Positions 4,043 to 27,155 of a stretch of 32,000 bases of DNA are shown piece by piece; within the stretch, counting starts at the first letter, position 1, and each line of letters starts with the position of its first letter. Source of the DNA: Pyrobaculum aerophilum str. IM2 (lineage in GTDB: Archaea; Thermoproteota; Thermoprotei; Thermoproteales; Thermoproteaceae); assembly GCF_000007225.1 (NCBI RefSeq), contig NC_003364.1, positions 2,100,001 to 2,132,000 on the forward strand, read 5' to 3'. The translations under genes and the position numbers were made by a program. The notes beneath the pieces were generated by a model. The model was not told the DNA's origin. It saw only the letters and a list, made by a program, of their open reading frames with translations, and ran no database searches.

Positions 4043-4107
4043 TAAGTCTGCAACGTTCATAAATATACCTCATGTTGTTTATAAGTGATGAGCCAGGCGA
4101 TTAGGAT
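4043..4107. repeat. direct repeat DR1, right copy (65 bp)
   Basis: Aligns with 1402-1469; retains a decoy TATA plus ATG (4060) followed by only 10 codons (MNVADLIKRR*). Confidence 0.85.
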
Positions 4108-4210: not shown

Positions 4211-5875
4211 ATGAGAAAGGTGGCAGTGTTAACCTTAATACTGGCGTTTATCCTACTGGCCGCCGGGTGGCAGACTTATACTATAAAAGTTGCCTCTGTT
4301 GAAATAAACGCACTTGCCGTGGGGCCGTCAGGAGGGTCCGTCTTGCCGATAAAAGTGACTTTGCTCACGCCCGGCGACGGCCGCGCCTATGTGGCAGGCG
4401 TACCAGAGGCGGGACAGGGGTTTGGCCCCTCGGCGCAAATCGCCCTTTATGTGGCATCGCGCCTCTCGGGAGTCCCCTACACGAATTACACAGCACTGCT
4501 TAGAGTGCTCGCCAGCGATGCCCAAGTCGGCGGGCCTTCTGCCAGCGGCTATATAACAGTGGCGCTGTACGCCTTAATGAACGGCCTTCAGCTACGGAAT
4601 GATACAGCCATGACGGGGATTATACTCCCCGACGGCCTCATAGGGCCTGTGGGCGGGGTGTCTCAAAAAGTCAGCGCCGCCGCTGCGCAGGGAATTAAAA
4701 CGGCGCTTGTGCCAATAGGCGAGGCCCCAAGCGGCATTAGGGGGATAAGGGTCATTGAAATAGGCACTGTGGAGGACGCTATTTATTACCTCACGGGCCG
4801 GAGGATTGAAACCCCGCCTCCCACTGCCGTTGACGACTCTACCTTTAAGACAATTTCGAGGGACTTACTCAACGCGATATACAGCTATTACAACCAGACA
4901 GTGGGAAGGGGGTATGTAGACACAGCGACAATAGAGCGGCTGAAATCGCAGGGCTATTATTACGCCGCAGCCTCTCTAATCTACCAAGGCCTCGTCAATT
5001 ATTACAGAGAACAAGCGTCGTTTTCTAGGAGGGTTTACCGCAATTTATACGACCAGGCGTTACAAATGGCGAAAAACGCCGAGGCTGATTTAGCCCAAAT
5101 CCCAATAACTATAAACAACATTGACCTCGTGGTGGCCAGTTATACGAGGATATACGAAGTTTATTTAGAAGCCAACTCCACTAATCCAGACGCGGGAATG
5201 ATGTACGCCAGGGCAATTACGTTGAAATCTTGGATAGACGAGGCGCGGAAAATGGCCTATGGGCCCGTTGTAAATGAGACGGGCCTCGCCGAAGTGGCGA
5301 AGATGTACCTCGACTACGCAAAGACCATGTATGCGTATCTCGAGACGACTTACGGCGTCACTCTTGGCGACTACGCCACAGCCGTGCAATTAGCGGAGAG
5401 CCTTTACCAACGCGGCTTGTACCTAGCGTCCATGGCTAACTCCATTGAGATAATCGCCGAATCTGCCTCCGCGCTCATGTCCTCGGCGCCTGATAAATAC
5501 CTACAAGTGGCCAGGGAAAGGGCTTTGATAAATATGGCCAGAGCTGCCGCGTGCGGCTACACCAACACTCTGCCGCTGAGCTACTTACAATTCGGCGACT
5601 ACTTCAGCGCTCAGGGCAACGCGGCGCAAAACGCTCTTGCCTACTATATTATGGCCTCTATATATTCCACGGCCATGGGCGACGTGGTGTGTAACGCCAA
5701 GGGAGGGAGAATAATCCCAAGGGCGAATTTCTCAGCGGAAACTCAAGCCCCAACCTCCGCCCCCGTCACGACGCCCATGGAGTCTGTTGCAGAACAGGGG
5801 GAAAAAAGCTTGTGGATTCCCCTGGTTTTAGTCTTGTTGGCCGCGGCGGCTTTGATATACGCCTCTAGACGGTAA
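4211..5875 (+). CDS. membrane-anchored S16 (Lon C-terminal proteolytic domain) family peptidase
   Basis: VGGPSASGY...AMTGIILPDGLIGPVGGVSQKVSAAAAQG resembles the Lon Ser-Lys dyad region (GPSAG...AMTGE...GG..eK); N-terminal signal/TM and C-terminal TM (LWIPLVLVLLAAAALIY). Confidence 0.75.
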   Translation: MRKVAVLTLILAFILLAAGWQTYTIKVASVEINALAVGPSGGSVLPIKVTLLTPGDGRAYVAGVPEAGQGFGPSAQIALYVASRLSGVPYTNYTALLRVLASDAQVGGPSASGYITVALYALMNGLQLRNDTAMTGIILPDGLIGPVGGVSQKVSAAAAQGIKTALVPIGEAPSGIRGIRVIEIGTVEDAIYYLTGRRIETPPPTAVDDSTFKTISRDLLNAIYSYYNQTVGRGYVDTATIERLKSQGYYYAAASLIYQGLVNYYREQASFSRRVYRNLYDQALQMAKNAEADLAQIPITINNIDLVVASYTRIYEVYLEANSTNPDAGMMYARAITLKSWIDEARKMAYGPVVNETGLAEVAKMYLDYAKTMYAYLETTYGVTLGDYATAVQLAESLYQRGLYLASMANSIEIIAESASALMSSAPDKYLQVARERALINMARAAACGYTNTLPLSYLQFGDYFSAQGNAAQNALAYYIMASIYSTAMGDVVCNAKGGRIIPRANFSAETQAPTSAPVTTPMESVAEQGEKSLWIPLVLVLLAAAALIYASRR

Positions 5876-6233: not shown

Positions 6234-6815
6234 TTGAAACGGGAGGAATCGGCACTGCACAGCTCCGGTGTATTGTTTAAATACTGTCAGAATTGTACAG
6301 CCGTGTGGTTCCTCCCGTTGACTAGAAACGAGGCTGTAGAGGCCATTAAAAAGGCGTATTCTATAGCGCAAGAATACGCGAGGAAAATTGGAGGAAGGCT
6401 GGAGGTAATACAGCCAAAGCATATATACGGCGACTCGGCTGATAAATTCGGCTACTCGTTGCAAATCGGGAGGATAACAGTAAACCTCCCTCCAGCCGCC
6501 GTGTTGATTGTCTGGGGCTTTTACAACGCCGATGAATATCTGGATTTCGTTAGATTTATTCAAGACGGACGCGTCTTCGAGTGGTTTGTAGAGCCCATTG
6601 CCTACTACCCCGAGAGAGTCGGCGTATGGGCAGAGGAGCCGTTAGTATTCAGAAATGTTATTTACATCGACGTCCACACCACCTCTACGGAGCAACGGGA
6701 TAGAGTTTACGGGTGGCCGCTGGGCTATTTCATATCACCTCTCCAGCCGCCCCAAGAGGTGAGGCCTCCCAAGAGGCGTAGAGTGGAGAGGAGGCAGAAG
6801 GGCGGGCAGTCTTGA
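6234..6815 (+). CDS. hypothetical protein coupled to the serine recombinase
   Basis: 193 aa, TTG start; its stop overlaps the recombinase start (TTGA, 6812-6815); basic C-terminal tail PPKRRRVERRQKGG; preferred over antisense ORF 6216-6563 because of this coupling. Confidence 0.45.
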   Translation: MKREESALHSSGVLFKYCQNCTAVWFLPLTRNEAVEAIKKAYSIAQEYARKIGGRLEVIQPKHIYGDSADKFGYSLQIGRITVNLPPAAVLIVWGFYNADEYLDFVRFIQDGRVFEWFVEPIAYYPERVGVWAEEPLVFRNVIYIDVHTTSTEQRDRVYGWPLGYFISPLQPPQEVRPPKRRRVERRQKGGQS

Positions 6816-7567
6816 TAACTGCAGTAACGTACATAAGAGTCTCCACGGAGGAGCAGGACCCGGAAAATCAACGGGTGTTTTTAGAGAGGTGGGCCGGGGA
6901 GAGGGGGATTTACATTGTTAAGCACTATGTCGACGTGGGGGTGTCCGGAGCGACGGAGCCTTGGGAGAGGCCGGCCTTTAGACAAATGGCCTCTGAGGTG
7001 GACAAGCTGGAGCCGAGGCCGCGGGTGTTGCTCGTGTACGAAATTTCGAGGCTAGTGCGCTCTTTCCAAGAGCTCTTTACTCTGCTAGACGTGGTGGAGA
7101 ACAGACTGGGTCTCGTGGTAGTCTCAGCCTCGGAGAGGGAGCAGGCCCTGCAGAACCTCGACGGAGTTTATAGACAGTTCTTACGGGCAGTTTTGGCCTT
7201 TGTGGCGACTATGGAGAGAGAGTTTATAAGACAGAGGACTAAGACGGCGCTTGAGAGGGCGCGCCTCCAGGGGAAGGTGTGGAACGTCGCCGAGAAGCGG
7301 CGGGATTTGACGCAGGCCGTAGTGGAGATGTACCTATCGGGGGCCTCGCTGAGGGAGACCGCCAGGGCCTTCGGCCTCTCACTGTATGAAGTAAGGCGAA
7401 TTCTGTCAAACGCGGGGGTGTACAGGCCAAGCCCCTACACGTGCCCCCGTTGCTTCTCAAAAATGAAAGTAGCTGAGAGGACGGCTAAAATCTCCAACGG
7501 GAAGTACACAGTGGTGGAGAGGCTCTATTGTTATAATTGCGGCTACGAGGAGATCAGGGAGGGATAA
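6812..7567 (+). CDS. serine recombinase (resolvase/invertase family) with C-terminal HTH and Zn ribbon
   Basis: N-terminal AVTYIRVSTEEQDPENQ (catalytic Ser motif), YEISRLVRS, HTH SLRETARAFGLSLYEVRRIL, CPRC...CYNCG. Confidence 0.8.
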   Translation: MITAVTYIRVSTEEQDPENQRVFLERWAGERGIYIVKHYVDVGVSGATEPWERPAFRQMASEVDKLEPRPRVLLVYEISRLVRSFQELFTLLDVVENRLGLVVVSASEREQALQNLDGVYRQFLRAVLAFVATMEREFIRQRTKTALERARLQGKVWNVAEKRRDLTQAVVEMYLSGASLRETARAFGLSLYEVRRILSNAGVYRPSPYTCPRCFSKMKVAERTAKISNGKYTVVERLYCYNCGYEEIREG

Positions 7568-14756: not shown

Positions 14757-15638
14757 GTGTTAGAACTGGCTTTGTTATTGCTACTGCTGGCTTTTACGTT
14801 TAATGACGGCGTATTTATTGGAATTGGGAAAACAGGGCCTGTGGAAATACCGCTGGATAGGCATATAGTAATAACAGGCCCGACTAGAAGCGGCAAGACT
14901 AAACTCGCGAAGAAAATCGTGGCGAGGTCGGGGTTGCCGGCTCTTGTGCTTGATTGGCACGGCGAGTACGAAGGGCTATCAATAGATGCAAGAAAAATAA
15001 AAATTGACATTGAGAAATTTGATAAAAAATTACTAGTAGAGATTTTGGGCCTCTCTCTTAATCTAAACGAGCCAAGTATTTACTTCCTTTATAGGGCAAT
15101 ACGTAACCAAAAACTACGAGACATTAAAGACGTAGTTGCCGCGTTAGAGGACTTTTTAGTGGCCACGAGGAGCGAGGTGGAGATGAAGGCTGCAATTGCC
15201 AGAAGGCTTGAATACGTAATGGACGTGTTTGAAAAAGGCATTATACCGGTGGAGAAAATTTTTAAATATAAAAAGACTATTATTATTAATTTATCTAAAT
15301 TGAAATTATATGAAGAAAAAATATTAATATCACTATTTATATTATCATCTTTATATAATTACTTATTTGAGAAAGGGCCGTCTAAAAAAGTCGACAGGCT
15401 ACTCGTAGTAGACGAGGCGCAGAATATTTTAAAACGCGGCGATGTTGTGAAATACTTGGTTTTTGAAAGCGCCAAGTACGGCCTGAGATTAGTGCTTGTG
15501 AGTAACGAAATGCCCCCAGAGGATATACTAGTCCATGCAACTCTAGTGTTAACTCGCCCTCATTACGCATACAGTTTAAAAACTAAGAGGGCGGCGGTGA
15601 TCCGTGACAACACAATAAAAGAGTTATGGATAATATAG
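14757..15638 (+). CDS. mini HerA/DUF87-type P-loop ATPase
   Basis: Walker A GPTRSGKT, LDWHGEYEG (HerA-like D-HGEY), Walker B LLVVDEAQN; 293 aa. Confidence 0.7.
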   Translation: MLELALLLLLLAFTFNDGVFIGIGKTGPVEIPLDRHIVITGPTRSGKTKLAKKIVARSGLPALVLDWHGEYEGLSIDARKIKIDIEKFDKKLLVEILGLSLNLNEPSIYFLYRAIRNQKLRDIKDVVAALEDFLVATRSEVEMKAAIARRLEYVMDVFEKGIIPVEKIFKYKKTIIINLSKLKLYEEKILISLFILSSLYNYLFEKGPSKKVDRLLVVDEAQNILKRGDVVKYLVFESAKYGLRLVLVSNEMPPEDILVHATLVLTRPHYAYSLKTKRAAVIRDNTIKELWII

Positions 15639-15820
15639 AAAAAATATTGAGGGCTCTGGGTTTGAAAAAAGATGAAATTACTTCTTGTGATATCTATATT
15701 AACTATTTTATGCAATATTTAGCTAGTATTGAGAGGAAAATCGCTGAGTTAAAAAGCAAAGTTGATTACCTAGAGGAAAAATGCATTAAAAATGGAGAAG
15801 AAACCGATAACTCAGGCTAG
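15626..15820 (+). CDS. small coiled-coil protein; 3' end lies in DR2
   Basis: 64 aa; overlaps the upstream ORF by 13 nt; the C-terminal VDYLEEKCIKN is encoded by the repeat. Confidence 0.45.
   Translation: MDNIEKILRALGLKKDEITSCDIYINYFMQYLASIERKIAELKSKVDYLEEKCIKNGEETDNSG
15762..15810. repeat. direct repeat DR2, left copy (49 bp)
   Basis: 43/49 identical to 27107-27155 by hand alignment; the first 23 nt are perfect (TTGATTACCTAGAGGAAAAATGC). Confidence 0.8.
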
Positions 15821-15900
15821 TATAAAAAGGGAAAATCTCCGAGTTAACCTGTCGCGCCCTCCGTCATATCATGTCCCTGTAGTGTTGAATGGCTATATTG

Positions 15901-16004
15901 CCGTCCTCGAAAAATTTCTCAGAGGCTAAAAGCCAAGCTTTCCGACCTGGATAATTCAGGAAATAAAGCCGAAAAATTAGCGTTCAAGAATTCTTTCAGA
16001 ACGG
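15901..16004. repeat. ~105-bp dyad-symmetric module, copy C (most degenerate)
   Basis: CCGTCCTCGA-N5-TTCTCAGAG ... CCTGGATAATTCAGG ... TTCAAGAA-N5-TCAGAACGG; same architecture and spacing as copies A and B. Confidence 0.65.
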
Positions 16005-16033
16005 CATATCCGCAGGATCGAGCAGGAGTTAGG

Positions 16034-16046
16034 AAAAAAGGGGGGG
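16034..16046 (-). terminator. C7-T6 tract directly after the TnpB-like stop
   Basis: Minus strand reads CCCCCCCTTTTTT starting 2 nt after the TAA at 16048-16050. Confidence 0.3.
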
Positions 16047-16047
16047 T

Positions 16048-16950
16048 TTAAATTAATTCGGAGAACCGCCTCTGCGCCCACAGCGCCAACACTTTCTCCC
16101 TCGGCGCCTCAAAGCCGCACTGCTGACACCTCAGCTTCCTATCCGACAGCTCCCCCATTTCTATCCCACACCGGGGGCACACCGCGGAGTACAGCCTGTC
16201 CTCACGGTACGGCACTCCGTACCATGAGGCCAGCTCTCTAATCCGCCTCCTCAGCCTCTCCGCGTTGAGGCGGATTCCTCTGTCTGAGACCTGGCGGGGG
16301 TCTGGCACGCTTACCACAATCACCGCCTTGTTGCGCCTCGCCTCCATTACTAGCTTCTTCGCCGTTTCATCTTCAAACTGGCGCAAGATGTTTTTCACGC
16401 GTCTGCGGAGCGCCGCTACTCTTTCACAGTGGTCCTCCTCCCCGCTCGCACAGAGGGCCTCAAGGCGGGAGATTTCCCTCTGTATGCGGCCAATTTTCCC
16501 CAAGTCCGGCCTGTAGACGCCTTTTTGCAGTACGCGCTCCCCATCTACAGTCGCCCACACCACGCCGTTGTGTAGAGCGATGACATCAACTGCGGTTAGG
16601 CGGGTAGGCTGGTAGGGCTCCGTCTCTTTGGCGAATACCAGCGCCACGTTAAAGGTGAATAAGTCAGACCGCCCAGTGGGGCCCACCCAGGCGTAGGCCT
16701 CCTCCAGCCGGCCGCCCTCCTTCAGCCTCTGGAGTATCCCCCTCACTTCTGCCCTCCTCAGCCTTATTACAATTGCGCCTTCGCCCTGTCCAATTCTGAT
16801 CTCGCCCCCTTGGAGATCGACAGAGAACTGATCTCCGCGGAGTGCCACCCGCTTGTTGATACCCCCTTGCGCTCCCAGAAACTCCACCAGCTTCTCTGAC
16901 GGAATCTCCTCCACTTTTCTCCGTATAAGCACTGTTCTATACGCCATCAT
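16048..16950 (-). CDS. compact TnpB/IS605-OrfB-like protein with non-canonical RuvC residues
   Basis: LTAVDVIALHNG (RuvC-I-like Asp), helical RRRVKNILRQFEDETAKKLV, ELASWYGVPYREDRLYSAVCPRCG-x13-CQQCG Zn finger in the family-typical position; 300 aa. Confidence 0.6.
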   Translation of the reverse strand: MMAYRTVLIRRKVEEIPSEKLVEFLGAQGGINKRVALRGDQFSVDLQGGEIRIGQGEGAIVIRLRRAEVRGILQRLKEGGRLEEAYAWVGPTGRSDLFTFNVALVFAKETEPYQPTRLTAVDVIALHNGVVWATVDGERVLQKGVYRPDLGKIGRIQREISRLEALCASGEEDHCERVAALRRRVKNILRQFEDETAKKLVMEARRNKAVIVVSVPDPRQVSDRGIRLNAERLRRRIRELASWYGVPYREDRLYSAVCPRCGIEMGELSDRKLRCQQCGFEAPREKVLALWAQRRFSELI

Positions 16951-16998
16951 GACTCTTCCTCCGCACTCCCAATTTTGAACAATTTTTCACCGCATGCT

Positions 16999-17101
16999 TT
17001 CCTGAATCCGGTTCTGAGCGGCGGTTTTTGCGCCTTAGCGTCCTGAAAAATTCAGGAAACAGAGGCGGGAAAAACCGGCTCAGGAGGGGGCTCAGGAGAC
17101 G
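16999..17101. repeat. ~105-bp dyad-symmetric module, copy A
   Basis: TTCCTGAA-N5-TTCTGAG ... CCTGAAAAATTCAGG ... CTCAGGAG-N5-TCAGGAGACG; right arm overlaps the ATPase stop codon (17092-17094). Confidence 0.7.
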
Positions 17102-18582
17102 TCCTCTGGCCGGGCCAGCCGGATGAAGATCGGCGCCCTCCCGCCGAACCGGACAACGGCGTGGCGCTCCCCCGGTAGCGACTCGGTGGCCACCCTCTCC
17201 AGCACGGAGCGGTCTATCTGCACGGCGCGGGACACCCTCTCCAGCTGCTCCGGCGCTATCGCCAGCACGGCCTTGGTGTCCGAGTTGGCGATGATGGTGG
17301 AGAGCGGCCCGAACTCCTGGACGTCCTGGCTTATGGCCACGAGCCTGACCCCGAACTTCCTGAGGCCGCGCCACGCCAGCGCCAGCGCCTCTAAGTTGCG
17401 GAGCAGCAGGTGGGCCTCGTCTATGTAGATCTCCAGCTTCGGCCCGCAGGACGGCCTGGGGCACGCCCGCTTGGCCCACAGCGCGTATGCGAACAGCCAC
17501 GAGACGAGCCTCATGACGGAGGCGGGGCCCTCGTCCCCGTACGTGGTCACCGCCACCGCGCCAGACGTGGCGAGCCCCGCGGGCCTGGCCCGGGCCAGGG
17601 ACTTCAACCGGCCGTAGATGGAGTCGACGGCCATGGCGCTGAGGGGGTCCCGGATCCTCGCGAGCGCGCCGACCAGCCCGGCGAGGTCGGCGGAGCCCCC
17701 GGCCCTCTCCAGGGCGTTGAGGATCACCGTGTAGTGCACGTCGTGCACCGCCACGCCGGCGGCCCTCAGTATGTCCAGGAGGAGGTCGGCGTCTGAGGGG
17801 CCCTCCTCGCCGCTGTCGGCCGAGAATGCCATCTCCGGTATGTGTTTCCTGGCGTCGATCACGGCCGTGGCGACGTCGGCCCAGTGCCCGTGGGGATCTA
17901 TGGCCACCACTAGCCTCCCCAGCCGCCTGGCCTGTGCGGCCTGGGCCTTCGCCCACGTGGTCTTGCCAGATCCCGTCTTGCCGATCACCACGGCGTGGGG
18001 GCTCTCCAGCTGGTAGGGATCCATGCAGACCTCCCTCCCCCTGTCGTCCCAGCCCAGCCTGTACGCAGAGGGGCCGCACTGGAAGGGCAACAGCATGAAG
18101 GCATAGGGGGTGAACTCCGCGAGGTCGAAGGTCAGGGCGTCCACGGTGCTGGGCCTCCCCACGGTGAAGGCTAAGGGCCTCCCGTCCACCACCCCCGCAA
18201 CCGCGAAGGCCTCCTCCCTCAGGTGGACGATCCTGTGCCTCACCGCCGCCACCTCCTCGGCCCGCATCATGCGGACTCGGCTGAGGAGGACCGCCGCCAT
18301 GTGCTCCTGCCGGAGGGCCCGCTTCGTGATCCTCTGCAGGAAGCCCCTGTTGGGCGCCCAGGTCACCAGCGCCCTGCTGACCATCAGCTGGGAGACCTTC
18401 GCGATCGAGTGCACCTCCTCGGGGCGCAGGAGGGCGAAGAGGGAGTCGTTGGCCTCCAGGCCCCGCCCGGCGGCTGGCGTCCCCGCGTCCGACGCCAGGA
18501 GGAGGAGGTAGGCCAGGGCCCCGAGGACGGCGCCGGGGAGGGAGGCGGTGGCGGCGTGCACCTGGGATCGCCTGGCGGGCAT
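17092..18582 (-). CDS. HerA/VirB4-like (DUF87-type) ATPase with N-terminal hydrophobic anchor
   Basis: Walker A GKTGSGKT, AIDPHGHW, Walker B EIYIDEAHLL; N-terminal LPGAVLGALAYLLLLA; alternative start at Met67 (18384) forms a TGATG stop-start overlap with the upstream ORF. Confidence 0.8.
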   Translation of the reverse strand: MPARRSQVHAATASLPGAVLGALAYLLLLASDAGTPAAGRGLEANDSLFALLRPEEVHSIAKVSQLMVSRALVTWAPNRGFLQRITKRALRQEHMAAVLLSRVRMMRAEEVAAVRHRIVHLREEAFAVAGVVDGRPLAFTVGRPSTVDALTFDLAEFTPYAFMLLPFQCGPSAYRLGWDDRGREVCMDPYQLESPHAVVIGKTGSGKTTWAKAQAAQARRLGRLVVAIDPHGHWADVATAVIDARKHIPEMAFSADSGEEGPSDADLLLDILRAAGVAVHDVHYTVILNALERAGGSADLAGLVGALARIRDPLSAMAVDSIYGRLKSLARARPAGLATSGAVAVTTYGDEGPASVMRLVSWLFAYALWAKRACPRPSCGPKLEIYIDEAHLLLRNLEALALAWRGLRKFGVRLVAISQDVQEFGPLSTIIANSDTKAVLAIAPEQLERVSRAVQIDRSVLERVATESLPGERHAVVRFGGRAPIFIRLARPEDVS

Positions 18583-19985
18583 GGGGGCGGGGGCGGATCG
18601 TCCGTCACGTTCGGCGGGGGCGGCGGCGGCGGAGGCGGCCTCTGGATGGCGGGGCGGACGTCGTGGTAGGTCACGCCGCCAGGCACCGCGAGTCCCGCAT
18701 AACTTCTGCTACTCGATATAAACGCGACGTAGTCCACGCTGGCACTGGTTATGCTTTCTCTGTTGTGGTAGCCGAGGTTCTGCACTACGGTTCCCACGAT
18801 GTTGGTGCCCAGGATGTAGAACCGCTCGACCGGGGCCACCACAGTGCCGCCACTGGGGCTGTAGGACCAGTCATAGAGGGCGTTGAACCGCTCCACCTGG
18901 GCGCCGAAGCTGAGGTAGAAGTACCTGTAGCTATCGGGCCACACCGCGTAGGCGTTGGGCACCACCGAGTCGGGAACCTGTAGCGGGCCGACGGGCGTCT
19001 CAATGGTGATGGGCGTGGAGCCGAAGGAGATCTCGGCCGCTGGCACGAGGGTGATGTCCTGAGAGACGTAAGCGAGACCTTGCTCTATGGTCTCCCGGCC
19101 AGCCGCCAGCCAGACGGTGGGCCAGCTGTTGGCCACAATGCCGATCCACCTGAAGAACGCCCTGGCTATGTCCACGTCAGAACGGAGTGGGCTGACAGCA
19201 CTCCCCGGGTTGGCGAGCTCCACCCCCTCAGTTCCGGGGACGACCGTCCCGCTCTGCCCCATGAACGTCAGGTTGTACTTGGTGCTGAGTCTCTCCTTGG
19301 CTATGCCACCGAGCGGGACGTACCAGCGACCGTCAGCGCCGCCATTGCGGCTCACTGTCACGCTCCCGACGAGGGCCTCCGTAGAGCCCTGTGGCGTGGC
19401 CACCACGTACGCCACGGCGAAGCCGTAGCACGTATCGCTATGCTTCTTCCACACGTGCCCTACAACGACGAGATCGCCAGCTGGCCACCAGGCGCCTACG
19501 TCCTCTGCCACTACTTCAACCAAGTAGCTGTTTGCCCACGACGCCCTCCCGCCGCCAGCCCTCTGCAGGTGCTCTGGCGTGAGGTATTCATCAATCCTGG
19601 TGGCGTTCTGCGGGACGCAGGTCTCCGGGTCGTACCCCCTGTAGACGCGCCACTCGCTTCCCACCCTGGCAAGGCTGTACAGGCCGTACCTCACCGTGGG
19701 CACCGTGTTCTTGGGGGCCCCCACGGCCATGACCACCCACTGTGGCGGGAGGACGCGGGCCTTCATGTCAAACCTGAAGGGTATGCCGATGGAGGACAGT
19801 CCCAGGCCCTGAACGCTGTCTGGCGCGCCGTACCAGGACTCCGCCCTGTTGCCCGCAGTCCTCCTGAACTCCGACTGCTCGAAGGCGGCCAGGAGGCCCG
19901 CCGGCCCGGCCCTCCCCCAGGCGATCCAGGCGGCCGGGCTACCCCTTACCGCGTACCAGACGAAGTGGAAGTACTCCTCCCTCAT
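18384..19985 (-). CDS. large beta-rich hypothetical protein with C-terminal poly-proline tract
   Basis: 533 aa; N-x-S/T sequons; PPPPPPPPPNVTDDPPPPPCPP; no signal peptide of its own; in frame with the upstream ORF across a TAG. Confidence 0.6.
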   Translation of the reverse strand: MREEYFHFVWYAVRGSPAAWIAWGRAGPAGLLAAFEQSEFRRTAGNRAESWYGAPDSVQGLGLSSIGIPFRFDMKARVLPPQWVVMAVGAPKNTVPTVRYGLYSLARVGSEWRVYRGYDPETCVPQNATRIDEYLTPEHLQRAGGGRASWANSYLVEVVAEDVGAWWPAGDLVVVGHVWKKHSDTCYGFAVAYVVATPQGSTEALVGSVTVSRNGGADGRWYVPLGGIAKERLSTKYNLTFMGQSGTVVPGTEGVELANPGSAVSPLRSDVDIARAFFRWIGIVANSWPTVWLAAGRETIEQGLAYVSQDITLVPAAEISFGSTPITIETPVGPLQVPDSVVPNAYAVWPDSYRYFYLSFGAQVERFNALYDWSYSPSGGTVVAPVERFYILGTNIVGTVVQNLGYHNRESITSASVDYVAFISSSRSYAGLAVPGGVTYHDVRPAIQRPPPPPPPPPNVTDDPPPPPCPPGDPRCTPPPPPSPAPSSGPWPTSSSWRRTRGRQPPGGAWRPTTPSSPSCAPRRCTRSRRSPS

Positions 19986-20033
19986 CAGAATCCCGTCGGT
20001 GGTGCCGTCTGTGTTGGTGTTGTACTGTCCCGG

Positions 20034-20825
20034 CTACAGGCCGCTCATCTGGAGGAACCTGAGACTGCCGCCAGCACCCTCCAGGTACTCGTGGGTCACC
20101 GTCATCTCGTAGCTACCGAACTGGTCGACAGACGGCACGTTCTCCCAGTACTGGGCGCCGAAGTCGCCCGGCTCCACCGTCTCCTTCCCGTACCACGGCA
20201 CCGTCAGAGTGCACGCGTACTCCCCGCTGTCCGCGGTGTCGAGGATCAGCAGGTCGCAGGACCTCTCGCCAGACTGCCAGCCCTCGCCCCTCACGTCCTT
20301 GGCCGTGGTGACCGTGACGGTGGTGCTACCGACGAGTTCACCGCTCGTCTTGTTGTAGTACTCGCACCTTATCACGTACTCGGTCACTGTGGCCGTCCAC
20401 TGTCTCGGCGCGGAGAACCGCACGGACGCCTGCACCCGGTACTCGGTCTTCAGCGGGTTGGGATCGCCCCACTGGGCCGCGTAGGGCTCCGAGCCGCGGG
20501 CCTCCTGCGCTTTATCAGTCCTCGGGAAGCCGGTCTCCACCCTGTAGCTGAACACCAGCCCCATCTCGAAGTCGAAGGCGTTGCGGGTGACAGTCCGCGA
20601 CGTCTGAGACGCCACGTACGTCCTCAGCGATATTTCCGGATCGGCGGGAGAGGGACAGAAGCCTTCAATAACTTTAGGATCGTTCATATCTTTGCGCTCT
20701 CCACTTATTGTTATACTATCCGGATCTACTTTGAAGAATCCGCCTTTGTCGCTGTTGTCGCCACCGTACGCCAGCAACGCCAGTAGCGCCAGGACTGCCA
20801 GCACCGCTGGCCAGGGGTTCCGCAT
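20034..20825 (-). CDS. secreted hypothetical protein
   Basis: 263 aa; signal-like MRNPWPAVLAVLALLALLAYGG; TATA-like TAAAGTTTT about 15-25 nt upstream of the ATG. Confidence 0.6.
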   Translation of the reverse strand: MRNPWPAVLAVLALLALLAYGGDNSDKGGFFKVDPDSITISGERKDMNDPKVIEGFCPSPADPEISLRTYVASQTSRTVTRNAFDFEMGLVFSYRVETGFPRTDKAQEARGSEPYAAQWGDPNPLKTEYRVQASVRFSAPRQWTATVTEYVIRCEYYNKTSGELVGSTTVTVTTAKDVRGEGWQSGERSCDLLILDTADSGEYACTLTVPWYGKETVEPGDFGAQYWENVPSVDQFGSYEMTVTHEYLEGAGGSLRFLQMSGL

Positions 20826-20883
20826 GAGGGGGAGGGGGAAAAACTTTAGTGTTGATTGTGGGGTGGGAGGAGGGGTGGCAACG

Positions 20884-21045
20884 CTATCTGCGCCTGGCGA
20901 GGCGCCCCGCCGCCAGGCCCGCGGCTAGGGCGGCCGCGGCCAGCGCGGCCGCCGCCGTCCAGTCCACCTCCCTCACCCTCACCGTCTCGGTGGCCGTGGC
21001 GACGCTGGTGACGGTCTCAGTGACTGTGGCGGTCTCCGTGGCGGT
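20884..21045 (-). other. in-frame continuation after TAG: Thr-rich stalk plus C-terminal TM anchor
   Basis: My translation: TATETATVTETVTSVATATETVRVREVDWTAAAALAAAALAAGLAAGRLARRR*, in the same frame as ORF 21046-21861. Confidence 0.5.
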
Positions 21046-21861
21046 CTACCTCACGGTGACTGTTGTGGTGGCCACGGCCGTTGCCGTCACGGTTCTGGTC
21101 ACTGTGGTGGTGACGTTGACGTAGACGGGCCTCACCTCCTCCCTTATGGCGACGCCCCTCGGGCCGGGGTAGCTGAAGTTCGGCCACTCAACGTCGGCGC
21201 TGTAGATGAGCTCGGCCCTCCGGACGCCGTCGCCGAAGAGGGTCGCGAAGGTGGAGCCATTTTTGAGTCTCACTAAATACGCGCATTCGTTCCACCACAG
21301 GGCGTAGTCGTAGTCTCCAGTAGTGCCATGTATTTTTCTCATATACTCCCACCTCTCCATAAACGAGCTACCCGTCACGATACAGGGAGTCCTCTTCACC
21401 ACCTCCCCGGCCCTGTAAACGTCCAGTCTCCTCCCGTCAAAGGCGGCAATGCCGACTCTGGTGCCGTTTTTGTAGACGTAGAGGACGACGTCCCTGCCCC
21501 GCGTGGAGTTGAGGAGATCGGCGCGGCTCACCCTGGCGCCCGGGAACAGCTCTTGCAGCTTCTGCAGGATCCTGTGCACGAGCAACGCCGCCGCCACCTC
21601 CCTCTCGAGCATCACGCCACTTGTGGCGAAGAGGGGCCCGTGCACCGGCCAGCTGCCCGCCAGGTAGGCCGCCAGGGGCTCCACAAAGGCGTCTGGAGGC
21701 CGCACCGGTAGCCACATCTGCACCTTGGGCTCGGTCGGTAGTGAATCCCACCAGTAGCCCGGCCTGAAGTTGCCCTCCCCGTCCACCACCAGGTGGTATG
21801 TGCCGTAGTCCAGCTCGGCCCTGTCCCACAGCGACACGGGCCAGAACCAGGTGGCGCTCAC
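21046..21861 (-). CDS. hypothetical surface protein segment (GTG start, ends at in-frame TAG)
   Basis: 271 aa; several N-x-S/T sequons; C-terminal T/V-rich repeat VNVTTTVTRTVTATAVATTTVTVR; no signal peptide of its own. Confidence 0.55.
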   Translation of the reverse strand: MSATWFWPVSLWDRAELDYGTYHLVVDGEGNFRPGYWWDSLPTEPKVQMWLPVRPPDAFVEPLAAYLAGSWPVHGPLFATSGVMLEREVAAALLVHRILQKLQELFPGARVSRADLLNSTRGRDVVLYVYKNGTRVGIAAFDGRRLDVYRAGEVVKRTPCIVTGSSFMERWEYMRKIHGTTGDYDYALWWNECAYLVRLKNGSTFATLFGDGVRRAELIYSADVEWPNFSYPGPRGVAIREEVRPVYVNVTTTVTRTVTATAVATTTVTVR

Positions 21862-21969
21862 GACGCACGAGATCCCCTCTACGCAGAACGGCCGGGCGCC
21901 GCTGGCCGGGCTGGTCGTGTAGAGTCCGGTCTTCCAGGAGGTGAGGGCGCCGTGGACGACCCTGGCCTG

Positions 21970-22704
21970 TCACTCGTAGCTGGTGCTGCCGTTGCCCGGC
22001 ATGACGAACAGGTAGTACAGCACGTAGTCGGCCTCCAGGGACACGGAGAAGTAGTCGGTGTAGGCCACCACGGCGCGTAGCGTGCCGTTGGCCCCCAGCC
22101 ATATGAGGGCCAGGCGGCCCGGTCTCTTGAAGCGGAAGGCGAAGGTGGCGTAGCCGTAGTGGAGCCTCTGGGTGCCGATCACTGTCACCGAGCCGAGGAA
22201 TACCTGCCTGACGTCGTGCCAGCTGACGCAGGCCTCGGGCTCCGGCTGGGCGGTCAGCGGCCTGTCCCAGTCCGCGGGGTAGCCGACCAGAACCACCTGG
22301 GCCCTCTTGCAGGCGAAGAGGGATATCGGGAAGTCCAGACTGCCGTAGTAGTAGTGGACGACGCCCGGATCCGTGAACCACGTGACGTTCACGAAGCCGA
22401 TGCGCGCGGAGCCCCGCTCGAAGGGCGGGCTCTCCCCCAGCCTGAGGAGCCTGCCAAGGTAGCCGCTGACGGGCGGCCTTCCCACCCAGAAGAGGTAGAC
22501 GGGCTCTGAGGCGTTGAGAACCAGCCGGTCTCCGGGGACGACCGCGGCCGTGAAGTTGACCCAGCCGCCTGGCGTGTACAGGGGGCCCTCGGACACGTAC
22601 ACCAGGAGCCGGTAGTCCCAGTACTCCAGCTCCAGCCCCAGCGCGGTTGCGGCCAGCAGTAGCGCCACCAGGGGGACTGCCCTCACCATGGGGAACGGCC
22701 CCAA
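21970..22704 (-). CDS. secreted hypothetical protein (probable true start ATG at 22689)
   Basis: Signal-like MVRAVPLVALLLAATALG from the ATG at 22689; the TATA-like box sits 23 nt upstream of that ATG but abuts the TTG at 22704. Confidence 0.65.
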   Translation of the reverse strand: MGPFPMVRAVPLVALLLAATALGLELEYWDYRLLVYVSEGPLYTPGGWVNFTAAVVPGDRLVLNASEPVYLFWVGRPPVSGYLGRLLRLGESPPFERGSARIGFVNVTWFTDPGVVHYYYGSLDFPISLFACKRAQVVLVGYPADWDRPLTAQPEPEACVSWHDVRQVFLGSVTVIGTQRLHYGYATFAFRFKRPGRLALIWLGANGTLRAVVAYTDYFSVSLEADYVLYYLFVMPGNGSTSYE

Positions 22705-22705
22705 G

Positions 22706-22718
22706 CTATAATTTAAAG
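22706..22718 (-). promoter_or_regulatory. TATA-like box (CTTTAAATTATAG on minus strand)
   Basis: Position relative to the ATG at 22689 fits a leaderless transcript. Confidence 0.45.
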
Positions 22719-22728
22719 ATTTAGCACG

Positions 22729-22835
22729 CCGTCCTGAGATGTCTCCTGAGTCGCCAGTTTTCCAGCGGACAGTTCCTGAAAAATTCAGGAACTCCCGCCG
22801 AATTTTTCGTCGATTCAGGAACTAACTCAGGACGG
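22729..22835. repeat. ~105-bp dyad-symmetric module, copy B (best preserved)
   Basis: Left arm CCGTCCTGAGATGTCTCCTGAGTC and right arm GATTCAGGAACTAACTCAGGACGG are reverse complements at 19/24; each lies 22 nt from the central GTTCCTGAA-AAA-TTCAGGAAC. Confidence 0.8.
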
Positions 22836-22853
22836 CGGGAGGGGGTAGGGGGA

Positions 22854-23009
22854 TTATGTCGACACGAGTAGCGCCACCGGCTCTCCCTCTCTGTCGGTCA
22901 CCAAAATCGCCACCTCACCGTTCTTCTTGTACTCGGCGACTGTGTCTAAGGGCGCCAGCGCAAAGCACCTGTCGGCGGTTTCTATCAAAATCTTCCAGAG
23001 GCGTACCAC
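22854..23009 (-). CDS. possible small ORF or gene fragment (CBS-like pattern)
   Basis: Frame open 23069-22854 with no ATG; first GTG at 23009 gives 51 aa ending ...LDTVAEYKKNGEVAILVTDREGEPVALLVST*; below the ORF-track size cutoff. Confidence 0.2.
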   Translation of the reverse strand: MVRLWKILIETADRCFALAPLDTVAEYKKNGEVAILVTDREGEPVALLVST

Positions 23010-23332
23010 CGTCCACTGGGCGTCTTCTGGGCCTTCACACAGCCTTATCTTTACCAGCCTGGCGTTGCGCTAGTGAATCAATATCTTAATTCGCACTGGG
23101 GCGCCCGTGGCCATGCTTCGAGTTAATAGGCCGAGGTGGTACGTAGACGGCTACTACGTCGAGAGGGACGGCCCCCGCCCCGTCGCGGCTGTAGCAAAAA
23201 GCGTTGCGGCCACATGGCGCGCCCTCTTGGATCCTTCGTCCATCGCCATGTACTCTACCATGGGCGGGCACATGTCGACAGAGCCCCCTTTAGTTGTTTT
23301 TAAACCCCCAGTCATACTTATAATAGTTATAC

Positions 23333-23773
23333 GTGTACGTGGTCTACCTCCTCTACGCCGAGCTCGGGGGGAGGGTCGTGCGCTACGTCGGCTCCGGGAA
23401 GTGGCCGGGCCGGCTGAGGAGCCACGTAAGGGGGCACTCCTCCCTGGCCAAGCGCGGGGGGAGGCCGCTCTTCGCCGTGGTGTTAGCGTTTACTGAGGAT
23501 CGGGAGACGGCCTACCGCATGGAGGCCTATTTCCAGCGCCTTCTGGGGCACGAGACGGGCCGCCGTGTCCGCAAGAGGCCCCTCGCCGCCAGGTTGCCGA
23601 GGAGGTTCAGGCCAGTGAGATTCGGCGGCCTCTTGGTCTTCGTCCCCGACGGGGAGGGGGCAATCCCCGCGCGGCGGGGGATCAGCCCTCCAATGGCCGA
23701 AAGCCCGCCACCCGCAGGCCAGGGAGCCACCACAAGCAAGGAGCCAGGCCCCGGTGGCCCGGGACAGGCCTAG
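23333..23773 (+). CDS. GIY-YIG domain protein with Arg/Pro-rich tail
   Basis: N-terminus YVVYLLYAELGGRVVRYVGSGKWPGRLRSHVRGH ... ETAYRMEAYFQRL fits the GIY-x10-YVG...R..H...E pattern; A/T box TTTTTTAAA ~30 nt upstream of the GTG. Confidence 0.55.
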   Translation: MYVVYLLYAELGGRVVRYVGSGKWPGRLRSHVRGHSSLAKRGGRPLFAVVLAFTEDRETAYRMEAYFQRLLGHETGRRVRKRPLAARLPRRFRPVRFGGLLVFVPDGEGAIPARRGISPPMAESPPPAGQGATTSKEPGPGGPGQA

Positions 23774-23992
23774 TGGGCCTCTGTGGCCGTGGTAGCCACC
23801 GCGGCCAGGCGGACGGGCCTTGCACGGCCTGACCACAGGCCCGGAGGGGGTGAACTCGACGAACTCTATGTGGGGCCAGGCGGAGTACATCACCACGCGG
23901 CCGCCGGACTTCATGCGGGACACCCACGGCCTCACCTGCCCAGAGGCCTCGTAGACGTGGACCACTTGCCACCTGACCCTCGCCACCGCCAC
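23483..23992 (-). CDS. doubtful ORF antisense to the GIY-YIG tail
   Basis: GTG start; only the first ~60 aa look protein-like; lies in GC-rich DNA where long spurious ORFs are frequent. Confidence 0.2.
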   Translation of the reverse strand: MAVARVRWQVVHVYEASGQVRPWVSRMKSGGRVVMYSAWPHIEFVEFTPSGPVVRPCKARPPGRGGYHGHRGPLGLSRATGAWLLACGGSLACGWRAFGHWRADPPPRGDCPLPVGDEDQEAAESHWPEPPRQPGGEGPLADTAARLVPQKALEIGLHAVGRLPILSKR

Positions 23993-24130
23993 ATTCTCTT
24001 AACGTGGCAACAACGCTTTTTGCCTCAACTGCAGGCGTGTCGCCTGCCCCTCGGAAAGAGATTCAGGGCGGTACATATGTCGATATGGCATACTTTAATC
24101 AAAATTTCTGGATGTCGCGAAAACTAGCTC

Positions 24131-25225
24131 ATGAAGGTAGCAGAGGAGGCTTTAAAGTACAGGTCTGAAATTAAGAGACTGTTTGAGGAGGCGGAAATGG
24201 CAATAGAGCAGGGCTCAAAGCCGTGGAGCGACTTGAGGAGAGTTGTGACTTACATGAACAGCAGGCACAATAGGGATTGGCTAAGGTCTGCACACGTAGC
24301 CGTCGCCTGGATCCTACTCGAGGCGGGGCTGAGGGAGCTCGGCGACGTGAGGGACAGAGCGCTATCTGCTCTTAAAGAGATAGCGGAGAGACTGGCAAAG
24401 GGGGAGGAGGCAGAAGTGCCAGTGAAAGAGATATCGGAATTTGTGAGGAGGGCGCACGACGTGGCGCACCGCCTCGAGTTGATATTCGAGGACATCACGA
24501 GAAACGCCGAGAGGTATGGTAGAACTAAAGAGGAGGCCGAGACGATAAGGAGGACTTTCGCCGTAACCGAAGTGGCCAGGGAGCTGGCCGTCGCCACAGT
24601 GAGGAAGCTCAACAAGCTCAGCGAAGCGACGCTCGCCGACAAAGTTGTTGCATTTTTCTACAGCCTAGCTGAGGGCACGGCTTGGAGCCGTATAGTACTG
24701 AACGCCCTGAAGAGGGGAGAGGTATACGGGGCACTGGCCAGATCGCCAACAACGGCGTATACCAAATACGGTGGCGAGCGGAAAAAGACAAGGGGTAAAA
24801 GAGAGAGGCTAAGCGCCATCGTCTCCCGCCTCGCTCTCTGGCTCTCTGAAAGGGGCGTGGACAGGGCCACGATGATACGTGAGGGCGATACGGTGAAGGT
24901 CGTAGTAAATGGCGAGACGGTGGCCGAAGTCGAGACTAAGACTATCAAGACTGGGGGGAGCATTATTTTCTATGCGCAGGGCAGGTGGGTAGAGGAAGAG
25001 GGAAAAACAGCCGCAAAGCTGATAGCGAAGATAAAGCCTGCGAAGGCAGAGGACTACGAGCTAAGGGCGCTGTTGGCCACAGACGGTAATTATACCGCAG
25101 AGGGCAAGGTCATTGCTGGCACCACCTCAGTGCTACAGGCTGTGATCTACAAGCGGTTTGGGATGGAGGTCTCACACACGGGGAAGGGCGACTTGACCAG
25201 GTACGGCCTAAAGCCCATACTTTAG
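24131..25225 (+). CDS. helical hypothetical protein (possibly paREP2a-like)
   Basis: 364 aa, Glu/Arg/Lys-rich helical N-terminal part; C-terminal LRALLATDGNYTAEGKV motif; family name is from memory of P. aerophilum annotation and is unverified. Confidence 0.55.
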   Translation: MKVAEEALKYRSEIKRLFEEAEMAIEQGSKPWSDLRRVVTYMNSRHNRDWLRSAHVAVAWILLEAGLRELGDVRDRALSALKEIAERLAKGEEAEVPVKEISEFVRRAHDVAHRLELIFEDITRNAERYGRTKEEAETIRRTFAVTEVARELAVATVRKLNKLSEATLADKVVAFFYSLAEGTAWSRIVLNALKRGEVYGALARSPTTAYTKYGGERKKTRGKRERLSAIVSRLALWLSERGVDRATMIREGDTVKVVVNGETVAEVETKTIKTGGSIIFYAQGRWVEEEGKTAAKLIAKIKPAKAEDYELRALLATDGNYTAEGKVIAGTTSVLQAVIYKRFGMEVSHTGKGDLTRYGLKPIL

Positions 25226-25231
25226 GCTTGG

Positions 25232-27118
25232 TTGTCGACGCAAAAAGGCGGTGAAGAGGTGATCGAGATAGTTAGGCATGATTTAGAGGAGGGGCTAAGG
25301 GCCTTGCTGAGCAACGCTGAGCTGAGGGAGGAGCTTAGGGAAAAGGCGTTAAGACTCCTTGACGAGATGAAAATCTCAGTTCAAGGCGCAGACAAGAGTG
25401 AAAAGGGTAGAGAGAGGGTAGAGGACACAAGGAATAAGATAAAGGAGCGTATAGAGAAGTTCTTAACCGAGTTGAGGCTTGGAGAGAACAGTTCCGTCTG
25501 TCTTGTCAACTGTCAATTCGGCGAGCCCGTGCTGACGTATAAGCACGAGCCGTACGCCCGCATAATTGCGCCGTTAGTACATTACATCGCCTCAAACGCG
25601 CCGGAGGAGGAGGTCATGAGATTCCTAGCATATGCTGTACTTTTCGACGGAAGCATAGAACACGACAGAGTATCCCTCATGCTGGGCAATTTCCACGTAA
25701 AGGAGGCGTCAAAACGTCTCCCGCTTGATATGTACGACAAAATCGCTCTGTATATAATCCTCGCCGCGAAATACGGCGTGGGTATCAGGACAATTTTCGT
25801 CGGGGAGTATGAGACAATATTGTACTTTGACAGGAAGTATGTTGCAAAAATGTTCTCCCTTGTGTGGGGAGATCTCACAACCCTGTGGAGATTAGGCAGA
25901 ACGCTGGTATCACGCGCCGATCACATTTTCAAGAAGCTTGAAAACATTAGGATGTATGTTGAAGAGTTTGCAAACAGGCTGAAAATTGTCTGCATTCTAA
26001 AGAGTTTCTCAAACACAATCCCCTATGTAACGTTGTTGTTCTGGGAGGACAGCTGGCGGGAATTTGCACGTATATACATTAAATGGTGTCGGAATAAGCT
26101 GTGCGCTTACTTTAGGGGCGCCAAGGAAAAGGCAAAGCGCGCGGCTTCTGTGCTTAGCGCACTGGGCGCCACAGTGATAGTAAAGAAGTATGACGGGGAG
26201 TGGCGCGTCGCCCTTAAGGCGGACTCCATTACTGCCGTCCGCCGGACAGAATGGCTCGACGCAGTCCGCGCCCTCGTGGAGGAACTACACAGGAGGGGCA
26301 TAATAAGCGGGCGACAAAGGAGGCGATTGCTGAGGGAGATCGACGCCGGACCCAACGTGGTAGAGATGGCGGGGGTAGAATTCACCGTTAGAACAAAGGG
26401 CAGGCAGATCATAATAAAGCGCGAATCACTGTTGGCGGAGGTCATAAATTCGACAGTAGAGACACTCAAATCTGCCGGTCTCGAGGAGGGCGCCCACTTC
26501 ATTGCGAAAAGGCCTGATGGCAGTAGCTTGGGCTACGTGTACATAAGTGTGCCGACCGGGCTGTGGCAACTGGAGGAGTTAAGGAGACAGGGTATAGACT
26601 GGGCCGACAGAGCGCTAAAGCGCCTGGAGGAGATTGCAAAGGCCAGAGGCTTCTACGACGTGCTACAAAAGCACTTAAGATTGGCCAGGGAAGCGGAGAC
26701 CGTTAATCCGCGGGGACTGGTAGTAGAGGATCCTGGGGCGGGCGTCAGGGCCGAAATTAGAGACGTGAGGGTGGAGTGGACTGGCCGGAGGCCGAGAGTC
26801 GTGATCGAATACGAGGCGGGCGGACAGATCAAGTCGTTCTCCTTTATCTGGGGGCTGAAGACGCGGAGGGCAATTGTGGCAACTGTGAAACTAAACGCTG
26901 AAAGGGCCCTACTCTTGGCCGCCCTGACTGGCGACGGGAGGCTGAAGGGGAAGAGGGGGGCTTTACAGCTCCACGCCAAGCACTTGCTCGCCCTGACCAA
27001 GTACAAGGGCGTGGGTTTGTCCCCCGTTTTTTCCCTCCCGGTTTCACGGCTCTTTACAGATATCCTCCCGTGGCTGGTTCAGTGGCGGGGATGTGCTATT
27101 TGGGGATTGATTACCTAG
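25232..27118 (+). CDS. large hypothetical protein with LAGLIDADG-like motifs (possibly paREP2b-like)
   Basis: 628 aa; FLAYAVLFDGSIEHDRVSLML (~aa 131) and LLAALTGDGRLKGKRGALQL (~aa 561); 6-nt gap to the upstream ORF; stop lies inside DR2. Confidence 0.55.
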   Translation: MSTQKGGEEVIEIVRHDLEEGLRALLSNAELREELREKALRLLDEMKISVQGADKSEKGRERVEDTRNKIKERIEKFLTELRLGENSSVCLVNCQFGEPVLTYKHEPYARIIAPLVHYIASNAPEEEVMRFLAYAVLFDGSIEHDRVSLMLGNFHVKEASKRLPLDMYDKIALYIILAAKYGVGIRTIFVGEYETILYFDRKYVAKMFSLVWGDLTTLWRLGRTLVSRADHIFKKLENIRMYVEEFANRLKIVCILKSFSNTIPYVTLLFWEDSWREFARIYIKWCRNKLCAYFRGAKEKAKRAASVLSALGATVIVKKYDGEWRVALKADSITAVRRTEWLDAVRALVEELHRRGIISGRQRRRLLREIDAGPNVVEMAGVEFTVRTKGRQIIIKRESLLAEVINSTVETLKSAGLEEGAHFIAKRPDGSSLGYVYISVPTGLWQLEELRRQGIDWADRALKRLEEIAKARGFYDVLQKHLRLAREAETVNPRGLVVEDPGAGVRAEIRDVRVEWTGRRPRVVIEYEAGGQIKSFSFIWGLKTRRAIVATVKLNAERALLLAALTGDGRLKGKRGALQLHAKHLLALTKYKGVGLSPVFSLPVSRLFTDILPWLVQWRGCAIWGLIT

Positions 27119-27155
27119 AGGAAAAATGCTTTAAAAATGACAAAGAAACAAATAA
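27107..27155. repeat. direct repeat DR2, right copy (49 bp)
   Basis: 43/49 identical to 15762-15810; contains the stop of ORF 25232-27118 and the ATG of ORF 27137-27547. Confidence 0.8.

Follow-up and report, generated by a model that had tools for sequence, protein, structure and literature searches.

TnpB proteins of tnpB-only IS200/IS605 elements (the IS1341 group; ISDra2 TnpB, PDB 8bf8, 8exa and 8h1j) combine a WED domain, a RuvC core and a zinc ribbon. The TnpB-derived TldRs, defined by at least two RuvC mutations and often truncated, form conserved clades that keep the RNA-binding interface and a neighbouring guide-RNA scaffold, have no transposon ends and show a consistent linkage to particular host or phage genes (10.1101/2023.11.30.569447). 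Here we analyse a 32,000-nt stretch of the Pyrobaculum aerophilum str. IM2 genome (NC_003364.1, 2,100,001 to 2,132,000; hereafter the window, in whose positions coordinates are given) and, within it, a 300-residue TnpB-like open reading frame (ORF) that shares the fold and motif order of IS1341-group TnpB. We find that this ORF is probably a decaying, non-autonomous copy of a tnpB-only element of the Pyrobaculum lineage (IS200/IS605 superfamily, IS1341-like); its relatives in Pyrobaculum and the Thermoproteales are referred to as the family. The gene and the positions on which this reading turns are as follows.

16048..16950, minus strand: TnpB-like ORF of 300 amino acids (aa), shortened and with two catalytic positions altered (ORF list, Pfam, homologues, AlphaFold2 and Foldseek).
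16585..16587, minus strand: codon of D122, reading gat, the RuvC-I Asp, which is kept (alignments and sequence).
16309..16311, minus strand: codon of S214 at RuvC-II, where 98% of the family has Asp and canonical TnpB has Glu (alignment, family-profile/PDB alignment).
16096..16098, minus strand: codon of E285 at RuvC-III, where 98% of the family has Asp (alignment, family-profile/PDB alignment).
16807..16867, minus strand: junction of a ~171-nt (57-aa) in-frame deletion (blastn gap, protein alignment, models).
16048..16050, minus strand: TAA stop where relatives read CAA (Gln), with loss of ~15 C-terminal residues (nucleotide alignments, nhmmer match at 16078-16025).

A first-pass annotation of this DNA had described a shortened, 300-aa TnpB homologue with altered catalytic positions, and this much is borne out. 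The motifs it quoted (AVDVIALHNG, VIVVSVPDP, WYGVPYREDRLYSAVCPRCG-x13-CQQCG and PREKVLALWA) are all present in the translation, and profile comparison, one of the checks that it proposed, recovers TnpB homology together with a triad that is not intact in the window protein. The ORF reaches 28.2 bits against PF07282, the Cas12f1-like TNB domain of Pfam (gathering threshold 26.3, E 2e-6), matches transposase families in PHROGs at E 1e-8, and scores 41.4 bits (E 1e-10, residues 108-290) against the NCBIfam model NF040570, guided_TnpB, which is below the curated cutoff of 100 bits. A search of 5.8 billion proteins returns 53 relatives, nearly all from Pyrobaculum and 375-400 aa long, that are annotated as transposase or zinc-ribbon protein; with a profile built from 48 relatives, the ISDra2 TnpB structures 8bf8/8h1j are matched at E 3e-4, and chain 9yyg_A, an RNA-guided nuclease designed by AI, at E 2e-8. 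For the 300-aa protein, AlphaFold2 gives a confident model (predicted local distance difference test, pLDDT, 91.4; predicted template modelling score, pTM, 0.85) that has a Cas12f as its best Foldseek match in the PDB (E 5e-12) and also matches TnpB 8h1j (E 7e-9, TM 0.55), with the RuvC core, the zinc ribbon and a large part of the WED barrel predicted to be well folded in the order typical of TnpB and Cas12f, a WED barrel followed by a RuvC core with an inserted zinc-ribbon TNB domain. An exhaustive HMMER search finds just 90 of 1.84 billion cluster representatives at E<=1e-3, and no second case of the short architecture of the 300-aa protein among them. The family is a small, divergent and tnpB-only clade of Thermoproteales TnpB; no tnpA adjoins any family copy examined.

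The family departs from the usual TnpB in having Asp for Glu at RuvC-II, PRDxVPxxWA for DRDxNAAxNI, and a minimal REC. Its motifs in protein alignments are VDLNALHNG (RuvC-I), AIVVDxPxDES (RuvC-II) and CGFxAPRD[EK]VPxxWA (RuvC-III), and because the family profile, aligned to TnpB-type PDB chains, places the D of 'ivvD' on the E of 'vEDL' and 'CGFeapRD' on 'CG..hdRD', the RD of RuvC-III, we take the family triad to be D-D-D, with frequencies of 90%, 98% and 98% at RuvC-I, RuvC-II and RuvC-III. The window protein reads D122/S214/E285 at these positions, such that two of the three are changed and a complete acidic triad is lacking; N124, W71, R54, K225, T256 and P288, positions at least 90% conserved in the family, are altered as well.

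The ~80 aa by which the window protein is shorter than its relatives (the first estimate, against typical TnpB, had been ~100 aa) are accounted for by 57-aa and 10-aa in-frame deletions and the ~15-aa C-terminal loss. At the larger deletion, which starts after residue 25, the window has 60 nt in the blastn gap where locus L021 has 231 nt. Mapped onto the model of the full-length family member P0002, this deletion removes half of helix 18-40, helix 53-63 and strand 81-88, a segment that comprises the small REC and one WED strand, and leaves the N-terminal REC/WED region no longer intact. The 10-aa deletion takes out the helix that follows the RuvC-II strand (alignment and P0002 model), and DNA homology with relatives runs ~25-40 nt beyond the TAA stop.

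The substitution pattern has the signature of relaxed constraint on exactly those sites that the family conserves. The window protein deviates or is gapped at 24 of the 76 columns that are at least 85% conserved, compared to 0-11 for other Pyrobaculum members. At sites identical in six relatives it has changed at rates of 0.174, 0.143 and 0.160 at codon positions 1, 2 and 3 (ratio 0.99), whereas in the same test the relatives change at ~4-6% of positions 1 and 2 and 19-40% of position 3, with ratios of 0.13-0.27 (P0016 reaches up to 16% at position 1). The nonsynonymous-to-synonymous rate ratio, dN/dS, is ~0.28 on the window branch and ~0.12 in relatives, from a three-taxon split of pairwise distances. 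The synonymous distance dS is saturated among family members (1.4 to over 3), which limits the use of pairwise dN/dS; given this saturation, and just 25 third-position sites in the codon-position test, these selection estimates are rough. The locus is seen in no more than one 969-nt metagenome contig and two genomes that are almost the same (99.82% identity across 21.3 kb, the window matching JAVYKW010000003.1 of the Pyrobaculum metagenome-assembled genome GCA_038741535.1), and comparison with the near-identical strain is without power because the gene contains a single synonymous difference.

One other short family protein, P0038 (loci L044-L049), is a decayed copy of 302 aa with Asn at RuvC-III that several metagenomes carry in the same context, with a 54-98-aa ORF upstream in 4 of 6 loci (39 nt away where measured). 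We considered it as a second instance of the short architecture and rejected it, as it is apparently a frameshifted full-length gene.

The gene lies among ~110-nt palindromic modules and the motifs that follow them, as listed here.

16993..17099, minus strand: module A, a palindrome that forms the left terminus of the insertion sequence family (nhmmer 88 bits, DNA fold z -4.0).
22727..22840, plus strand: module B, the best-preserved copy in the window (nhmmer 102 bits, hairpin -36.9 kcal/mol, z -6.4).
15899..16005, minus strand: module C, a degenerate copy at the expected site of the family 3' hairpin region (nhmmer 26 bits, DNA fold z -1.5).
16970..16980, minus strand: GTTCAAAATTG motif between module A and the ATG, the sole copy in the window (motif search).
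15811..15898, minus strand: remnant after module C, a ATTCAACACT motif followed by ATGATATGA, a start and an immediate stop (sequence).

The extent of the mobile unit is given by loci L022 and L033, whose 97% identity begins with the first module base (-147), ends at +1429 and is bordered by unrelated flanks; the module is therefore the left terminus. Full-length copies carry ~170-280 nt of conserved sequence after the stop codon, with GTTCAAC/GTTGAAC hairpins and three compensatory pairs, from which we infer an omega-RNA scaffold and right end. Like IS1341-group elements, the family is thus multi-copy, with defined ends and a structured, conserved 3' region at the right one; unlike IS200/IS605, its left terminus is a 110-nt palindrome and not a short subterminal hairpin, and the left and right structures do not resemble each other, which differs from the classical pattern. 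Family genes are found at contig ends, and nested and truncated copies are common (L021, L026, L029, L039). No second tnpB fragment is detected by tblastn downstream of module B or elsewhere in the window.

The window copy has the left end only. The profile of the family 3' region matches the window at 16078-16025, the 3' end of the gene, and nowhere after the stop, even at E<=10; Rfam gives no match on the 3' flank, no significant similarity to the family 3' region is present in 15811..15898, and neither these searches nor local alignments reveal a cis-encoded omega-RNA scaffold. The guide-RNA scaffold first proposed for the 3' flank is accordingly not supported, and the same holds for the proposal that the two modules are left and right ends: a full-length copy has the module at its left terminus only and a different hairpin region on its right side, so module C is not a right end. 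Locus L025 also has a module-gene-module arrangement, but there the tnpB between the modules is full length and apparently intact and is accompanied by a hairpin region, a divergent one. In four full-length loci, the only Rfam matches are a Pyrobac-1 RNA, which is unrelated, and sR60 in L026, which is weak. Compared to IS1341-group TnpB, the window copy is in sum further without two catalytic residues, 57+10+15 aa and the 3' region.

A candidate remnant of the 3' hairpins after module C, the short match GCAATAT..CCA.TTCAACA, does not rise above shuffles or random-window controls and was rejected; the GTTCAACATTG promoter-like motif found after modules explains it better.

A separate GC-rich, hairpin-rich element of ~190 nt (CTGCCCCCCGCCCCGCCCCGGGCAGGGCGGGGC...) follows tnpB in five loci (L024 ~1730-1910, L025 ~4490-4630, L026 ~4400-4610, L027 4185-4365 and L033 ~3720-3920 on the minus strand), and in several of these is preceded by its own GTTCAAAATTG motif and 'ATGARGG'. 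Since L021 and L033 share their right flank at 98%, this element lies inside the mobile element in L033; the window does not contain it, Rfam gives no match to it, and it may be a non-coding RNA of the mobile element.

Short, non-coding, multi-copy imperfect palindromes that lie between genes are familiar from ERIC-type (enterobacterial repetitive intergenic consensus) repeats, miniature transposable elements with inverted repeats (MITEs) and palindrome-associated derivatives of IS200/IS605. The modules are of this MITE-like type, being ~110 nt long, non-coding, inverted-repeat and multi-copy, with or without a parent tnpB; they differ in having three invariant TCCTGA hexamers per arm, six in all, and a fixed distance to GTTCAA(A/C)ATTG and a start codon, and the analysis identified neither a target-site duplication nor a mobilising enzyme for them. 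At their centre is a 15-nt dyad, which by itself is not beyond chance (3 matches vs 1.06 expected, a number attained in 12 of 100 shuffles); the complete module of 110 nt exceeds chance by far, with nhmmer E-values of 1e-26 to 1e-30 for A and B. nhmmer also confirms the placement first described, with A upstream of the gene, the degenerate C downstream and B further off. Across 16 module copies, 71.6% of palindrome positions pair, vs 33-51% when the partner is slid, and covariation in the spacers is modest, with two-sided changes in 74 cells vs 53 +/- 6 in shuffles.

We count 25 distinct modules in the window and loci L021-L039, intergenic and often at contig ends; at least 8 have no tnpB nearby, and others lie directly upstream of full-length family genes (L021, L022, L025, L026, L028, L033). 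By nhmmer the module is lacking at the relatives in P. oguniense, Thermoproteus and Caldivirga, its pattern is not found in viral contigs, and a literature search returns nothing specific on Pyrobaculum TnpB, IS605 or palindromic repeats. In the window, the stop codon of the upstream ATPase gene falls within the first TCCTGA of module A.

Fragments of other family copies abut modules at several loci. L021 3700-3840 is part of the 5' gene region in inverted orientation, and L039 12341-12547 is a stub of it; L026 2747-2890 and L029 13802-13924 derive from the 3' hairpins, and the L026 fragment has the opposite orientation to the intact gene there. Such fragments point to nested insertions or recombination at modules.

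The outer edge of a module is followed by the GTTCAA(A/C)ATTG motif, then ~22 nt, then an ATG, in front of tnpB and unrelated genes alike, and this order recurs at 11 loci besides the window; the GTTCAAAATTG motif is a candidate promoter for a leaderless transcript. In 13 of the 25 distinct modules, an outward-facing, ATG-initiated ORF of at least 80 aa starts 28-48 nt from the edge, compared to 8% of random intervals, and neighbouring distance bins are at or near background; narrow bins were used here, the broad version of the test being uninformative (52% background). Module B adjoins a TTTAAATTATAG box and precedes, by 37 nt, the ATG (22689) with which the high-GC minus-strand operon begins. 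Module C, with its ATTCAACACT motif and ATGATATGA, is a second cassette that is degenerate, gene-less and dead, and that ends at the border of the 11.3-kb insertion described below. Unrelated genes downstream of modules include a pilin-like/small membrane protein operon in L034 and L038, and the module and motif together may constitute a transposon-derived mobile promoter cassette. Examples of modules are found at L034 319-428, L035 1027-1134 and L038 5189-5294.

The proposed history is then as follows. An intact element runs from a 110-nt palindromic module through the GTTCAAAATTG motif, the putative promoter, and a leaderless tnpB of ~380 aa to ~200-280 nt of conserved hairpins, the presumed omega RNA and right end. 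The window copy has kept module A as its left terminus, the promoter motif and an open frame with a TnpB fold, and has lost part of REC/WED (57 aa), the helix after RuvC-II (10 aa) and, by a nonsense change, the C-terminal tail. The RuvC-II acidic residue has been replaced by Ser and the RuvC-III Asp by Glu, and the whole 3' hairpin region is gone, with the degenerate module cassette C now in its place. Because of these losses, and with no cis-encoded guide, this copy could not work as the RNA-guided nuclease of the family, and the 300-aa protein would have no remaining function.

Several observations weigh against decay. The frame is open for 300 codons where opposite-strand frames are open for just ~40-80, both internal deletions are multiples of three, and simulated neutral change at ~0.11/site leaves no stop in only 2-3% of trials. 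Moreover, the promoter motif is intact and the gene may be expressed, the protein model folds with high confidence, E285 is a conservative, acidic replacement for Asp, and three residues past S214 is D217, a candidate active-site residue. The open frame, the in-frame deletions and the simulation suggest either that selection has to some degree preserved translation or that function was lost very recently, and the data fit recent inactivation and weak residual selection alike. Some of these features are what an exaptation without a cis guide would draw on, with the protein acting as a protein-only binder of the TCCTGA modules that regulates the cassettes, or as a dominant-negative partner or competitor that uses the omega RNAs of intact copies in trans and thereby damps the transposon. 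Here the intact promoter motif, the open frame and the in-frame deletions would be the mark of some retained selection, and the zinc ribbon, RuvC core and much of the WED barrel are predicted as well folded. Two modules flank the gene, an arrangement that recurs in L025, but since the flanked tnpB of L025 is full length and apparently intact, flanking modules do not by themselves mark exaptation. The short architecture is moreover unique to one locus, and the changes at conserved sites look unconstrained. We regard this explanation as unlikely and keep it as a candidate because the frame is still open. It is quite unlikely, in a more specific form, that the protein has been kept as a module binder or omega-RNA competitor controlling the module and GTTCAAAATTG cassettes; in this form the cassettes, at a fixed 28-48 nt upstream of tnpB and of unrelated genes (secreted-protein and pilin-like operons), would be mobile promoters spread or left behind by the transposon.

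The first-pass annotation had suggested domestication as a TldR-like repressor, that is, a nuclease-dead DNA binder that represses a target with a guide RNA from its 3' flank. The protein does resemble TldRs in being TnpB-derived, shorter than its parent and mutated at two of the three triad positions, which is within their published definition (10.1101/2023.11.30.569447); its frame has stayed open despite strong divergence, and immediately upstream of the gene, in the same orientation, is an operon unrelated to transposons, the ATPase operon, a linkage that is seen at one locus only. TldRs, however, keep the RNA-binding interface, whereas here REC helices and a WED strand are deleted, and tldR loci have no left or right ends, whereas module A is still attached. 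The 3' flank has neither the family hairpin region nor an Rfam match, the conserved-site changes have no codon-position bias, and no clade shares the mutations, the protein being a singleton among the 1.84 billion representatives with identical copies only. We therefore consider TldR-like domestication very improbable. Extremely unlikely is a still-active TnpB of unusual design, in which E285 and D217 would rebuild the active site and the guide would come from another copy. TnpB-like proteins with catalytic residues at alternate positions are known (10.1101/2023.11.30.569447), D122 is kept, E285 is acidic and D217 is near S214 in sequence, but part of REC/WED is gone, the six further family-conserved residues named above are altered, there is no cis guide and no right end, and the guided_TnpB score is 41 bits vs a cutoff of 100. 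A decaying, non-autonomous copy thus remains the reading that we prefer.

The importance of the gene as a relic is limited; it records TnpB decay in hyperthermophilic archaea through in-frame REC/WED, catalytic and guide-region losses, and it illustrates that two dead RuvC residues and a truncation are insufficient for calling TldR-like domestication. More useful are two by-products of the analysis. One is the TnpB clade of the Thermoproteales, small and divergent, in which RuvC-II has Asp and REC is minimal. The other, and the more unusual, is the 110-nt, six-hexamer palindrome at the left terminus, coupled to a promoter-like motif at a fixed distance to start codons that include those of non-transposon genes; should neighbouring genes be driven by this cassette, archaea would offer a case of mobile promoters carried by a transposon.

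The wider surroundings were compared with P. neutrophilum, which is syntenic on both sides; there, ~670 nt separate the XPD-like helicase gene from the M48 peptidase gene, vs 12.8 kb in the window. Two direct repeats mark an insertion here.

15762..15810, plus strand: left copy of a 49-nt direct repeat, 88% identical to the right copy (repeat search, P. neutrophilum comparison).
27107..27155, plus strand: right copy of this repeat, which represents the ancestral 3' end of a 59/64-aa gene (P. neutrophilum comparison).

The repeats are two versions of the 3' end of the 59/64-aa gene that bracket an 11.3-kb insertion (15811-27106), and the right copy is followed, as in P. neutrophilum, by the promoter and start of a 121/136-aa gene. 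The insertion is absent from the syntenic P. neutrophilum locus, and the tnpB-like gene lies 237 nt inside its left border. Bracketed as it is by 49-nt direct repeats, it resembles an integrated element; Pfam detects no integrase inside it. It contains modules C, A and B, the tnpB-like gene, a high-GC operon, a GIY-YIG gene, a 364-aa gene and PaREP2b, and part of it belongs to a block of 64-75% GC (about 17100-24000) in a genome of about 50% GC. The high-GC operon (17092-22704, minus strand) comprises five ORFs of 244, 271, 263, 533 and 496 aa, of which the 244-aa and 263-aa ORFs have hydrophobic N-termini that resemble signal peptides. The last is a HerA/VirB4/TrwB-like ATPase that overlaps the 533-aa ORF by 200 nt; this ATPase, upstream of the tnpB-like gene, lacks ~270 N-terminal residues relative to 739-aa Pyrobaculum relatives, and the other four proteins of the operon have no family match. 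The context of the P. arsenaticum homologue shares the ATPase only and not the island. The surroundings of the tnpB-like gene are a mosaic of acquired, partly decayed DNA and not a conserved chromosomal neighbourhood.

A few further features of the window are recorded here. The GIY-YIG ORF (146 aa, 23333-23773, plus strand; Pfam 23.3 vs 22.6 bits) lies in the high-GC part near module B. Between the XPD-like helicase gene and the 64-aa gene is a DUF87/HerA-like ATPase gene (293 aa, 14757-15638, plus strand, 35% GC), which, since it is absent from the P. neutrophilum locus, would be a further acquired gene. Direct repeats of ~66 nt at 1402-1469 and 4043-4107, 97% identical, cover the 5' end of a SIR2 gene and the sequence upstream of it, and bracket ~2.6 kb with two ORFs (2079-2543 and 2893-3480) that have no family match; because the SIR2 gene and a Lon-like gene are adjacent in P. 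neutrophilum, this segment looks like a second, small insertion. Finally, a small serine recombinase with a resolvase domain and a C-terminal helix-turn-helix (6812-7567, plus strand) is found in the same place in P. neutrophilum, and so is chromosomal and outside the insertion.

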